From Myxococcales bacterium (GTDB lineage Bacteria; Myxococcota_A; Bradymonadia; UBA7976; UBA1532), in the NCBI GenBank assembly GCA_020633555.1, contig JACKDL010000007.1, positions 93,821-157,820 on the forward strand: 64,000 nucleotides of DNA. The letters are read 5' to 3'. Shown here in pieces: positions 45,351 to 52,278 of this stretch. Below the pieces are notes generated by a model. The model was not told the origin of the DNA. It saw only the letters and a program-made list of their open reading frames with translations, and did no database searches. The position numbers were made by a program, and so were the translations under genes. Every line of letters begins with the position of its first letter. The first letter of the stretch is position 1.

Positions 45351-46709
45351 ATGCAGGTCCAGGAAGGCACCCGGGTGCTGCTCGTCGACGACGACCACGC
45401 CTTCGGGGTGGCCATGGCCAAGGCCCTGCGCCGCCGCGGCTTCCACGTCGAGATCGCAGAAGGGGGGCGCGCTGCCCTCCAGGCCCTGGCGCGGCCCGCG
45501 GACCAGGCCCCGGCCGTGGCCGTGCTGGACCTGCGCATGCCCGAGGTGGACGGGCTGGAGGTGCTGCGCCGCACCCCCGACCGGGTGACGCCCGTGGTGG
45601 TGCTCACCGGCCACGGCACCGTGCCCGACGCGGTGGAGTGCATGCGGCTGGGCGCCTACACCTTCCTCACCAAGCCCGTGGACGCCGCGGACCTGGCGCC
45701 GGTGCTCACCCAGGCGGCACGCCCGCTGGCGCCCGAGGTGGGCCACGAACTGGTGGGCGAGAGCGACGCGACCCGGCAGCTCCGGCGGCTGCTCGATCGC
45801 CTGGCCGAGGCCGACGAGCCGGTGCTGCTGACGGGCGAGACGGGCACGGGCAAAGAGGTCGCCGCCCGCCGGCTGCACCAGGCGTCGCGCCGCGCCGAGC
45901 AGCCCTTCCTGGCCGTGAACATGGCCTGCCTGCCCCGCGACCTGGTGGAGAGCGAGCTGTTCGGCCACGCCCGCGGCGCCTTCACGGGCGCCGACCGGCG
46001 CAAGGCCGGGCTCTTCGAGGAGGTCCAGGGGGGCACCCTGTTCCTCGACGAGGTGGCCGAGCTGCCCCTGGAGCACCAGGCCAAGCTGCTGCGGGTGCTG
46101 GAGACGAGCACCTTCCGGTCGGTGGGCGAGAACCGCGAGCGCGCCTTCCACGGCCGCCTCGTGGCCGCCACCCACCAGGATCTGCTGGGCCTGGTGCGCG
46201 AGGGGCGCTTCCGCGAGGACCTGTACTACCGCCTGCAGGTGCTGCCGCTGGAGCTGCCCGCGCTGCGGCAGCGCCGCGACGACATCGTGCCCATCGCCCG
46301 CCACTGGCTGGCGCGGGTCGCCACGAGCCCTGTCCTTCAGCCCCGAGGCCGAGCAGCTGCCTGCTGGCCACGACTGGCCGGGCAACGTGCGCGAGGTGGT
46401 GAACCTGTCGCGCCGCGTGTCGCTGTTCGCCGAGCGGGGGCGCGTGGACGCGGCGCTGGTGAGTCGGATGCTGGCGGCCAACCCGTTCCCGGCGCCCGCC
46501 GCGCCGTGCCCGCCGCCCGCCGAGCCGCGCCGACGCCGCCCGAGAGATCAGCCTGGAGGCGCTCGAACGCCGCCACATCCAGCGGCTGCTCGCCCACCAC
46601 CACAACATCACCCGCGTCGCCCGGATCCTCCAGACATCAACCGCCGCACCCTGCAGCGCAAACTGCGCGCCTGGGGCATCGATCACGATCGACTTCGGCG
46701 GGCGACTGA
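45351..46709 (+). CDS. sigma54-dependent response regulator (NtrC family); C-terminal third disrupted by at least 3 apparent frameshifts, end approximate
   Basis: Receiver domain [25 protein letters not shown]...[15 protein letters not shown]+ sigma54-activator domain: [18 protein letters not shown] (Walker A), GAFTGA (sigma54 contact), GTLFLDEV (Walker B), [10 protein letters not shown]. After [10 protein letters not shown] the expected ...[20 protein letters not shown]... and the Fis-type HTH (..[17 protein letters not shown]) are found in other frames. Confidence 0.75.
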
Positions 46710-46834
46710 CCCGCGTCGCGCGCCGGTGCGGCAAAATGCATGCGGCAAGGCGCGCACCCGCGCCCGTCAAATGCCGCCAAGCGTGTTTGACTGGACAAAC
46801 CAAGACCTCGGTGCTGAAAAGCGCCGCGCCTGCG

Positions 46835-46850
46835 TGGAACGCGTCTTGCT
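46835..46850 (+). promoter_or_regulatory. sigma54 (RpoN) -24/-12 promoter TGGAAC-gcgtc-TTGCT upstream of actA
   Basis: Seen directly: GG at 46836-46837 and GC at 46848-46849 with exact 10-nt spacing. Good fit to TGGCAC-N5-TTGCW. It lies about 110 bp upstream of the actA ATG, directly downstream of the sigma54-dependent activator gene. Confidence 0.6.
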
Positions 46851-46961
46851 GGTTCGGACTTGCGCCCAGGGATGGCGCCTTGGGGAGACGGCCGCCGCCG
46901 CGGCAGTAACGCCGGCCCGTGTTCGAGCGATGCTCGGCGGCGCGCACGAGGTTGCCGGAGG

Positions 46962-50600: not shown

Positions 50601-50851
50601 GGCGAAGCCCAGTTTGCGTCCGACCGCGAAGGTGGCGCAGAGGTCATCGACGAGATCGTCAGGTCGCCTGCCAGCAGGCCTGCCCGACCCAGGCCATCAC
50701 CTTCGGCGACATCAACGACAAGGACAGCGAGGTCAGCAAGTGGAAGGCCCAGGATCGGGACTACCAGCTGCTGAGCGAGCTGAACCTGAAGCCGCGCACG
50801 TCGTACCTGGCCAAGGTGCGCAACCCCAACCCCAAGCCTCGGCTGGGCTGA
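47650..50851 (+). pseudogene. actB: Alternative Complex III molybdopterin-oxidoreductase-like Fe-S subunit ActB; fragmented into at least 10 frame segments
   Basis: Recoverable pieces in order: DRKHWRSLDEREATP, Tat-like SRRHFLGVMGASMAMTSLAGC, ENILPYAQAPE, EVLPGMPKL, ESHEGRPTKIEGNPAH, WYTFESVSDDNQ, MSRLYAVEG, then the ferredoxin-like C-terminal module [22 protein letters not shown] / [18 protein letters not shown] / [26 protein letters not shown] / KCTYCVQRI. It ends ...NPKPRLG at 50849-50851. The start is unresolved. Confidence 0.65.
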
Positions 50852-50855
50852 GACG

Positions 50856-52278
50856 ATGGCAGCGCAGACCACGCAAGCGACACCGTCTTCCCGCCGCCGC
50901 TGGTGCAGGGCGGTCACGACGTTCGGCTCGGTCACCGACACGCCATCTGCGGGATCGTCGAGAGAAGCCCGCCATGCCCAAAGGCTGGCTGCCGCGTTCG
51001 CGGGGTCGCCGTCTCGGTCCTGGCGATGCTCGGCTCGTGGTCGCCTGGCTCATCTGGGAAGGCACCGGCATCTGGGGCCTCAACAACCCGGTGGGCTGGG
51101 GCTGGGCCATCGTCAACTTCGTGTTCTGGGTCGGCATCGGCCACGCCGGCACGCTGATCTCGGCGATCCTCTTCCTGTTCCGGCAGAAGTGGCGGACGGC
51201 GATCAACCGCTTCGCCGAGGCGATGACCATCTTCGCGGTCATCTGCGCCCTGGTCTTCCCCGGCATCCACGTCGGCCGCATCTGGGCCGCCTACTGGATG
51301 CTGCCGCTGCCCAACCAGATGGGCATGTGGCCGAACTTCCGCAGCCCGCTGCTGTGGGACGTGTTCGCGGTCTCGACCTACTTCACCGTGTCGCTGCTGT
51401 TCTGGTACGTCGGCCTCGTGCCCGACCTCGCCACCCTGCGCGACCGGGCCAAGGGCAAGATCCGCTACTACGCCTACGGCATGCTCAGCCTCGGCTGGCG
51501 CGGCGCCAACCGGCACTGGCAGAACTACGAGCGCGCCTACCTGCTCCTGGCCGGCCTGGCCACGCCGCTGGTGCTCTCGGTGCACACCATCGTGTCCTTC
51601 GACTTCGCGGTCTCGGTCATCCCCGGGTGGCACACCACGATCTTCCCGCCGTACTTCGTCGCGGGCGCCATCTTCTCGGGCTTCGCGATGGTGATGACCC
51701 TGGCGGTCCCCAGCCGGAAGATCTTCGGCCTCGAGGACTTCATCACCGTCCGGCACATCGAGAACATGAACAAGATCATCCTCGTGACCGGCACGATGGT
51801 CGGCTACGCCTACGCGATGGAGTTCTTCATCGCGTGGTACTCCGGCAGCCAGTACGAGAGCTTCGCGTTCGTGAACCGCGCCTTCGGCCCCTACGCCTGG
51901 GCCTACTGGATCATGGTGAGCTGCAACGTCATCACCCCGCAGTTCTTCTGGTTCAAGAAGATGCGGACCAACCTGACGGTGGCCTTCATCCTGTCGATCT
52001 TCGTGAACATCGGGATGTGGTTCGAGCGCTTCGTCATCACGATGTCGCTCCACCGGGACTTCCTGCCGTCGAGCTGGGACTACTACCGCCCCACCATGTT
52101 CGACATCAGCACCTTCGTGGGCAGCTTCGGCCTGTTCTTCACGCTGTTCCTCTTGTTCCTCAAGTTCCTGCCCGCCGTGGCGATCAGCGAGGTCAAGGGC
52201 GTGATGCCGCAGGCGGATCCGCACTGGGAGGGCTACGGCCACCACGGTGAGCACGGGGAGGAGGCCGCCCATGGCTGA
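50856..52278 (+). CDS. actC: Alternative Complex III NrfD/PsrC-like quinol-interacting membrane subunit ActC; first ~65 codons carry about 4 frameshifts, remainder intact
   Basis: From about 51040 the frame is clean: [44 protein letters not shown]... (NrfD-family, about 10 TM helices). The N-terminus MAAQTTQ... / [11 protein letters not shown] / TTFGSVTDT / IVERSPP / KAW lies in alternating frames. Confidence 0.8.

Follow-up and report, generated by a model that had tools for sequence, protein, structure and literature searches.

A 4.7-kb patch of probable near-raw long-read sequence interrupts the alternative complex III genes in a Myxococcales assembly

In the window studied here (the whole 64,000-nucleotide stretch of contig that was analysed), positions 46321-51039 are very probably a patch of near-raw-read sequence that was left in the assembly, and not a set of decaying genes. 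A localised assembly or consensus problem, as opposed to pseudogenisation, had already been proposed in the first-pass annotation, and the proposal has held up: the contig L085, from the same population, is identical to the window up to 46320 and carries an intact regulator beyond, the sequences L086, L087 and L088 lack the isolated indels found elsewhere in the window, and the corrected ActA, ActB and ActC are conserved and stop-free. The features concerned are the following.

16331..18297, no strand: milder second patch without polishing; 11 differences from two short-read assemblies
45351..46709, + strand: sigma-54-dependent NtrC-family response regulator, intact to 46320
46321..51039, no strand: error-dense patch of probable near-raw long-read quality, delimited by L085 (left edge), the last frameshift (right edge) and the loss of the GC3 frame signal
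46835..46849, + strand: sigma-54-type -24/-12 sequence element TGGAAC-N5-TTGC, putative promoter of actA
46962..47651, + strand: actA, pentahaem cytochrome c of ~229 aa, reconstructed across ~9 hops
47651..50848, + strand: actB, subunit of ~1037 aa with Tat signal, molybdopterin-like and 4Fe-4S parts; ~52 hops, no stops
50859..52278, + strand: actC, NrfD-like membrane subunit; 4 hops in the first ~60 codons, clean from 51040
within 52247..60090, + strand: intact actD, actE, actF, a small membrane ORF and SCO1/SenC (Pfam matches; L081)
within 52247..60090, + strand: intact coxII, coxI, coxIII and a coxIV-cytochrome c fusion (Pfam matches)

Edges of the patch and its counterparts in the same population

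The left edge of the patch could be placed to the base at 46321. L085 is a short-read-sized contig of assembly GCA_020430665.1. Over 45600-46320 the window agrees with it at all 721 bases; the first disagreement comes at 46321, and from there the window has, in 385 bp of coding sequence, lost 8 bases, gained 8 and acquired 12 substitutions, which are spread evenly over the codon positions (3/5/4). Exactly where the window is scrambled, L085 encodes an intact regulator (P0123, with PF25601 and PF02954) that retains its HTH_8 C-terminus, and the indels at 46321-46706 are missing from this independent assembly. The right edge is the final frameshift, at 51032-51039. In the GC3 frame plot, a single frame stands at 0.95-1.0 as far as ~46250 and once more from ~51035 onwards; between these points the signal is smeared. 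Both edges fall mid-gene, one in the regulator and one in actC, ignoring gene boundaries, and the flanks beyond these abrupt edges are at short-read-level identity. We looked for a repeat or paralogue to account for the patch and found none, and the patch holds no Ns.

The frame hops and the GC3 collapse at 46321-51039 bear out the earlier description of genes shredded over 46300-51050. The downstream act/cox genes, described as clean, are so: there are no hops from 51039 to the stop of actC, and the contig L081, from the same MAG as L085, matches 52017-57256 at 99.94% identity with 0 gaps. The 28 kb upstream, said to be clean as well, is clean at 45351-46320, where alignment to the reference L005 gave 0 hops, but not at 18147, 18155, 18196 and 18297, where the window differs from short-read assemblies. 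At 28361-30433, spanned by L089 (Logan SRR15882951), there are 10 mismatches and 0 gaps relative to the window.

For 46.7-51.0 kb, the sole comparator from the population is the diverged allele L082, and the errors in actA and actB are deduced rather than read base by base, because the intact comparators there are L082 (~7.5% diverged) and more distant homologues. That L082 might be the same strain, all its differences from the window being errors, was considered and is ruled out by codon-level synonymous swaps and by the changes in the clean segment 51040-51115, where the two differ by 3 third-position G/C changes. The patch carries a genuinely divergent actAB allele, ~7.5% from the co-binned one. 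Intact actAB of the same haplotype was not found in any collection searched: exact-match scans of JGI metagenome contigs gave no match to a pattern inside the patch or to one from clean actC, the genome contig scan gave relatives only, at <=91% among the matches listed, and no intact ActB of this haplotype was among the full-length database matches listed. We found no literature on JAGQJL, GCA_020430665 or SRR12358675. The short-read MAG breaks into contigs of 1.5-5 kb around the patch, at 45600, 47158/47176, 51115 and 52017.

Nature of the errors and the genes beneath them

Since plain tblastn passed straight over the frameshifts and was uninformative, we wrote a frameshift-aware protein-to-DNA alignment that uses intact homologues as references. 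Through actA and actB and into actC as far as codon ~60, it gave ~65 frame hops, about 1 per 63 bp, with further hops in the regulator C-terminus; 47 were F+ (an extra base) and 18 F- (a missing base). Where the first-pass annotation had reported almost no in-frame stops, we counted 0 in the corrected frames. Counted in bases, the patch has 155 inserted against 61 deleted, nearly all the indels being of 1-2 bp, with no larger deletions. The further statement that each hop is one base gained or lost in a short homopolymer does not survive, as 56 of the 97 single-base indels lie at non-repeated bases (44 of 66 insertions, 12 of 31 deletions), against a background of 53-58%. With the same-allele reference, the corresponding count is 5 of 11, with 0 in runs of >=4; indels in the dense patch are not concentrated in homopolymer runs. 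Substitution noise of ~3%, which the first-pass annotation did not mention, is also present.

A relative-rate test with L083 as outgroup assigned to the window lineage only ~2.7% excess substitutions, even across codon positions, and the remaining divergence is of the type normal for functional alleles, such as TCG to AGC serine swaps. Indels (~2-4%) are about as frequent as excess substitutions (~2.7%). If all of the 8.5% substitution differences were random decay, the probability of meeting no stop would be ~0, while with 2.7% random substitutions it is 0.11; the absence of stops, taken alone, informs only weakly on the level of noise. The dense patch is of near-raw-read quality, with at least 7% error in the form of random insertions, deletions and substitutions.

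Once the hops are corrected, actA, actB and actC read as well-conserved proteins. Reconstructed ActA has five CxxCH motifs (CRYCH, CMNCH, CESCH, CLECH and CSGCH) and matches the multihaem Pfam families Cytochrom_c3_2 and Cytochrome_C7. Corrected ActB can be aligned over its full length to the intact 1037-aa P0001, at 82% identity over matched codons, and has the twin-arginine motif RRHFLGVMGAS, Fe-S motifs and the Pfam domains Molydop_binding and Fer4_7. In ActC, which matches NrfD, the 4 hops lie at 50870-51038, followed by 0 over the 970 bp of 51039-52008, where the reference ends; a more distant ActC reference gave 0 hops between 51032 and the stop codon at 52275. Further downstream, ActD matches the Pfam family of that name, ActE matches cytochrome c, and the oxidase matches COX1, COX3 and COX4; ActF (53477-54685), which has no Pfam match, is assigned by position only. 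The patch scrambles the AAA-lid/HTH_8 region at the C-terminus of the regulator, where there are 3-5 hops at 46323-46634 relative to L005. Spliced from the N-terminus of the window and the intact C-terminus of L085, the regulator would be roughly 455-460 aa long, and ActC is expected at ~470 aa.

ActABCDEF beside a caa3-type cytochrome c oxidase is known from Rhodothermus marinus, Flavobacterium johnsoniae and many Myxococcota. The window shares with these systems the order actA-B-C-D-E-F followed by SCO1 and coxII-I-III-IV, the five-haem ActA, the Tat/molybdopterin-like/Fe-S ActB, the NrfD-like ActC and the Pfam match of ActD, and we see no biological difference from them, the apparent loss of ActA and ActB being an artefact. 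Directly upstream of the ACIII genes of the window lie the sigma-54 activator and the -24/-12 element; TGG-N9-TGC elements also precede actA in L001, L005, L083 and L085, and we infer from sequence that the element at 46835..46849 may act as a promoter.

Errors of a milder kind occur at 16331-18297. There two independent short-read assemblies, Logan SRR12358675 and the MAG, have the same sequence where the window departs from it; differences are 0 at 14206-16330 and 18298-21584. The error is roughly 0.5%, as against the at least 7% of the dense patch, and of the 8 indels, 7 add or remove one base in a G/C run of 3-6. The indels interrupt mscS at 17651 and a DUF432 gene at 17010 and 17261, and the source record accordingly holds a 166-aa MscS fragment, MCB9523526.1. 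Isolated events had been noted at 16357-16361, 17030-17260 and 17655, and we found them near 16357, 17010, 17261 and 17651; they are errors too. Homopolymer-prone chemistry, which had been suggested as the cause throughout, explains these isolated events but not the random insertions, deletions and substitutions of the dense patch. At 20.6-26.4 kb, changes of frame along the minus strand were considered as possible frameshifts, but they look like four consecutive abutting ORFs.

Frameshifts driven by indels are a hallmark of long-read assemblies without short-read polishing (Sereika et al. 2022, PMC9262707; proovframe preprint, bioRxiv 10.1101/2021.08.23.457338). The errors in the window resemble such residual errors in that single-base indels fragment conserved genes and are missing from short-read assemblies of the same population, and the 16.3-18.3 kb patch has the classic ±1 changes in G/C homopolymers. 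The 46.3-51.0 kb patch differs in being far denser, insertion-biased, not bound to homopolymers, and confined to one sharply bounded 4.7-kb block at a strain-variable allele; it looks like a raw-read gap fill rather than ordinary residual consensus error.

Possible origins of the patch

The window comes from a 225-kb NCBI contig of a Myxococcales MAG, most of it accurate to short-read level, and we propose that long reads went into all or part of the assembly. The population holds at least two actAB alleles ~7.5% apart, and strain variation, together with the fragmentation of the short-read MAG, is the likely reason why short reads could neither assemble nor polish the allele of the window. 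The stretch 46321-51039 would then never have been corrected with short reads, being either a gap fill or a consensus of one or very few long reads, and such uncorrected sequence would bring the ~4% indel and ~3% substitution errors that disrupt actA and actB, the C-terminal part of the regulator and the 5' end of actC. The errors themselves, the exact left edge, the intact regulator of the same population and the homopolymer errors elsewhere on the contig are observed, and the sequencing platform and the choice between gap filling and failed polishing are inferred; since a polished nanopore consensus would not usually show such a bias towards insertions or so weak a tie to homopolymers, we call the patch raw-read-like and name no platform.

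An artefact could also have arisen by collapse, if two co-occurring actAB haplotypes ~7.5% apart had been merged into a mosaic consensus with spurious extra bases. Two haplotypes do exist, L082 differing synonymously from the window even in the clean 51040-51115, and an excess of insertions, mostly non-homopolymeric, is what interleaved alleles would give. Clustering of the differences is also seen: the variance-to-mean ratio is 2.6, and the longest perfect run is 77 bp. However, at 46321-46600 the comparator is apparently the same allele, yet the noise of the window is 7%, and a mosaic would need a second allele that is absent from the sequences compared. We thus regard collapse as possible but rather unlikely.

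Far less probable is that the sequence is faithful, the regulator C-terminus, actA, actB and 5' actC having truly decayed with actCDEF and caa3 retained. The deposited sequence does read so, the source annotation calls truncated proteins, and the failure to find an intact actAB of the same haplotype fits with it. Pseudogene decay in reductive genome evolution likewise leaves multiple frameshifts in adjacent genes. But the marks of neutral decay, namely substitutions far in excess of indels, stop codons and a deletion bias, are absent from the patch, in which indels are at least as frequent as excess substitutions and the corrected frame is still under purifying selection; in known bacterial mutation spectra, indel frequency and insertion bias run the opposite way. 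Real decay would also have to account for a step from 0 of 721 differences to ~7% inside one gene, relative to a contig of the same population, for edges that disregard gene boundaries, and for proven consensus errors elsewhere on the same contig. More likely than a faithful sequence is that, underneath the errors, the population has two actAB alleles ~7.5% apart in otherwise identical flanks, which would amount to an ACIII module exchanged by recombination. That the cell decodes the hops, whether through programmed frameshifting or through RNA editing of the insertion/deletion type, is favoured by nothing except the stop-free corrected frame, and we give it next to no credence: the ~65 hops run in both directions, share no slippery motif or context, and start and stop mid-gene, and the L085 regulator of the same population, which has no hops, effectively refutes it. 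We know of no bacterial decoding system of this kind.

Consequences for the ACIII module and the public record

The finding matters for database hygiene only. The public record holds mis-called products, namely MCB9523526.1 and the 452-aa MCB9523548.1, annotated as the regulator but without HTH_8 and so lacking its DNA-binding domain, and presumably has no proper calls for ActA and ActB, in which case surveys of pathway completeness would wrongly report an ACIII without these two subunits. The more general hazard is that hybrid or long-read MAGs can hide kilobase-scale patches of raw quality at strain-variable loci, inside contigs that are otherwise near-perfect. For the biology of the organism the patch has no weight: the organism almost certainly has a complete and functional alternative complex III, and it should be scored with a complete ACIII-caa3 respiratory module.

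Reading frames across the patch

The G+C content of the window is 72-73% and that of third codon positions is about 100% in real genes, so the reading frame is directly visible. In a GC3 frame plot, the plus-strand regulator holds one clean frame from 45351 to ~46250, and actC and the genes downstream are again in one clean frame from ~51035 on. Between these points (~46250-51035) dominance of any one frame never lasts beyond 100-200 bp, and the longest ORFs within the error-dense patch (46321-51039) are wrong-frame, high-GC artefacts. For counting frame hops, relatives were retrieved via the clean part of ActC, and their intact ActA, ActB and ActC served as references in a custom protein-to-DNA alignment permitting 2-nt and 4-nt codons. 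Against L001, the locus of a 71.5% GC MAG, 57 hops were required. Closer references were P0001, an intact 1037-aa ActB encoded on contig L082 of the short-read MAG GCA_020430665.1, for ActB, and L083, another relative's locus, for ActA and ActC.

Frame hops by gene segment
45351-46320, plus strand, regulator: 0 hops
46323-46634, plus strand, regulator: 3-5 hops
46962-47651, plus strand, actA: 9 hops against L083
47651-50848, plus strand, actB: 52 hops against P0001/L082
50870-51038, plus strand, 5' part of actC: 4 hops against L083

The remainder of actC required no hops: L083 covers 970 bp of it (51039-52008, where that reference ends), and the alignment with the L001 ActC is equally free of them between 51032 and the stop codon at 52275. 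None of the corrected frames (regulator, actA, actB, actC) contained an in-frame stop. The first-pass annotation had described 46300-51050 as a stretch of shredded genes, and the frame plot, the hop counts and the clean flanks bear out both the stretch and its coordinates.

Same-population contigs and the underlying actAB allele

The decisive evidence is independent sequence from the same population. The exact ActF protein is present on L081, a 5.2-kb contig of GCA_020430665.1 that aligns to 52017-57256 without gaps. The clean regulator N-terminus, used as a query, gave two 100% matches. One, P0121 (MCB9523548.1, 452 aa, on a 225,242-bp NCBI contig), lacks the HTH domain and is evidently the mis-called ORF of the window itself; the other, P0123, is a partial sequence whose AAA-lid and HTH_8 domains are intact, encoded on L085, a 1.5-kb contig of the short-read MAG. 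L085 matches the window at 721/721 bases over 45600-46320. Across the remaining 385 bp of the regulator gene, which begin at 46321, the window has 8 bases deleted, 8 inserted and 12 substituted, the substitutions being spread evenly over codon positions. Since the difference steps from 0% to ~7% inside one gene, with indel bases outnumbering substitutions and the L085 protein intact, it looks like a change in sequence quality and not like a product of evolution.

Among the full-length matches listed, P0001 is the intact ActB nearest to the reconstruction. Over 47158-51115, ~14% of the alignment columns differ between the window and L082 (343 substitutions, 155 inserted and 61 deleted bases), and part of this difference is not error. 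Whole codons are swapped synonymously (e.g. TCG to AGC), and the clean segment 51040-51115 carries three third-position G/C changes; L082 is thus a different allele. In a relative-rate test with L083 as the outgroup, changes by codon position were 18/12/32 unique to L082 and 32/29/45 unique to the window, which amounts to ~7.5% genuine divergence of the functional-allele type plus a flat, noise-like excess of ~2.7% in the window. The pN/pS ratio was 0.55-0.65 for the window against L082, and 0.44 for L082 against L083. If the 8.5% substitution differences were all random, ~7 stops would be expected in ActB, with a probability of ~0 of finding none; selection has therefore acted on actB, and the indels overlie a selected gene. 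The ~7.5% allelic difference from L085/L082 (46600-51115) spans the intergenic region, actA, actB and 5' actC, between flanks that are identical (45600-46320, 100%) or nearly so (52017-57256, 99.94%), an arrangement suggestive of either coexisting strains or a recombination tract in the ACIII locus.

A milder patch at 16.3-18.3 kb and other sites

An isolated event had also been claimed in mscS, and the gene is indeed split at ~17651; the DUF432 gene upstream is likewise broken. Clustering at 90% identity groups the window's shortened MscS (MCB9523526.1, 166 aa) with an intact 278-aa protein from Logan SRR12358675 and with two partial ones from GCA_020430665.1. Their contigs, L086 (Logan) and L087 and L088 (MAG), jointly span 14206-21584. 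Window and L086 disagree at 11 positions, which all fall in 16331-18297, and at 11/11 the MAG contigs side with L086; there are no differences from these contigs in 14206-16330 or 18298-21584. An extra difference in L087 at 17475 is the sole disagreement between L086 and the MAG contigs where they overlap.

Single-base indels among the 11 differences (L086 and the MAG contigs relative to the window)
16357: plus G (G4 to G5)
16482: minus G
17010: minus G, at a break in the DUF432 gene
17261: minus C (C6 to C5), at a break in the DUF432 gene
17651: minus G (G4 to G3), at the mscS break
18147: plus A
18155: minus G
18196: plus G

Most of these differences change the length of a 3-6-base G/C run by one; they are consensus errors of the classic homopolymer type and form a second, milder unpolished patch. 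Alongside the dense patch and the clean stretches, they define three quality tiers in the contig: short-read-perfect, long-read consensus (~1 error per 180 bp) and near raw-read (at least 7%).

Elsewhere, on the minus strand (26337-28698), a Ser/Thr kinase ORF (26776-28698) overlaps an other-frame ORF (26337-26999); an indel near ~26950, where the first-pass annotation suspected an event, could have split a single gene into the two. In the 9200-11450 region (75-81% G+C), which contains the candidate event at ~10445, several of the frames hold long ORFs and none prevails as coding. L089, a close relative's contig from a second public run (Logan SRR15882951), matches 28361-30433 at 99.5% identity (10 mismatches, no gaps), so the population is present in more than one sample.

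Origin of the patch and the ACIII-caa3 module

The proposal that the patch is an assembly artefact rather than pseudogenisation stands, L085 being identical up to 46320 and then encoding an intact regulator, and the corrected frames being free of stops. The proposed mechanism, single-base indels in homopolymers, fits the isolated events with their G/C-run changes and fails for the dense patch. There, almost all gaps are of 1-2 bases and extra-base hops exceed missing-base hops (47 vs 18). Of the single-base insertions 44/66, and of the single-base deletions 12/31, lie at bases that are not repeated, close to background; in the same-allele stretch compared with L085, 5/11 single-base indels do so and none falls in a run of at least 4.

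On the most economical reading, in which platform and exact pipeline step are inferences, the MAG assembly would be long-read or hybrid, and 46321-51039 would rest on a single long read, or a very small number, that received no correction. Long-read assemblies require short-read polishing against indels, which otherwise harm gene prediction (PMC9262707; 10.1101/2021.08.23.457338). The short-read MAG is fragmented near the patch (breaks at 45600, 47158/47176, 51115 and 52017) and has the other actAB allele; strain heterogeneity thus probably blocked short-read assembly or polishing of the window's allele. A variant of the artefact, in which the patch is a collapsed consensus of two actAB alleles, would also account for the insertion bias outside homopolymers and the clustering of differences, and we consider it possible, if rather unlikely. 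Real pseudogenisation is highly improbable: it requires indels at least as common as substitutions, an insertion-favouring mutation process that leaves no stops or larger deletions, and decay that begins and ends mid-gene, and this decay would have to be missing from a same-population contig that matches the window perfectly as far as the boundary. Programmed recoding or RNA editing can, in practice, be dismissed. The finding is of value only as a pointer to proteins mis-annotated in the public record, where the error-made shortened products include the regulator without HTH_8 (45351-46709) and the 166-aa MscS (17600-18100).

A sigma-54-type -24/-12 element (TGGAAC-N5-TTGC, 46835-46849) lies 5' of actA, adjoining the gene for a sigma-54-dependent NtrC-family activator, and is conserved in L001 (at 5869), the relative's locus L005 (5956), L083 (3) and L085 (1238). 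This putative promoter with its adjoining activator gene suggests that, in this clade, sigma-54 controls the ACIII-caa3 operon. The last oxidase gene (59233-60090) encodes a fusion in which a proline/alanine-rich linker connects a prokaryotic COX4 domain with a cytochrome c domain at the C-terminus. Once corrected, ActA has five CxxCH motifs, ActB (82% identical to P0001) has a twin-arginine signal, a molybdopterin-like domain and Fe-S motifs, and ActC is NrfD-like; actD, actE, actF, SCO1, coxI, coxIII and coxIV are intact downstream. The ACIII-caa3 module of this organism should thus be considered complete.
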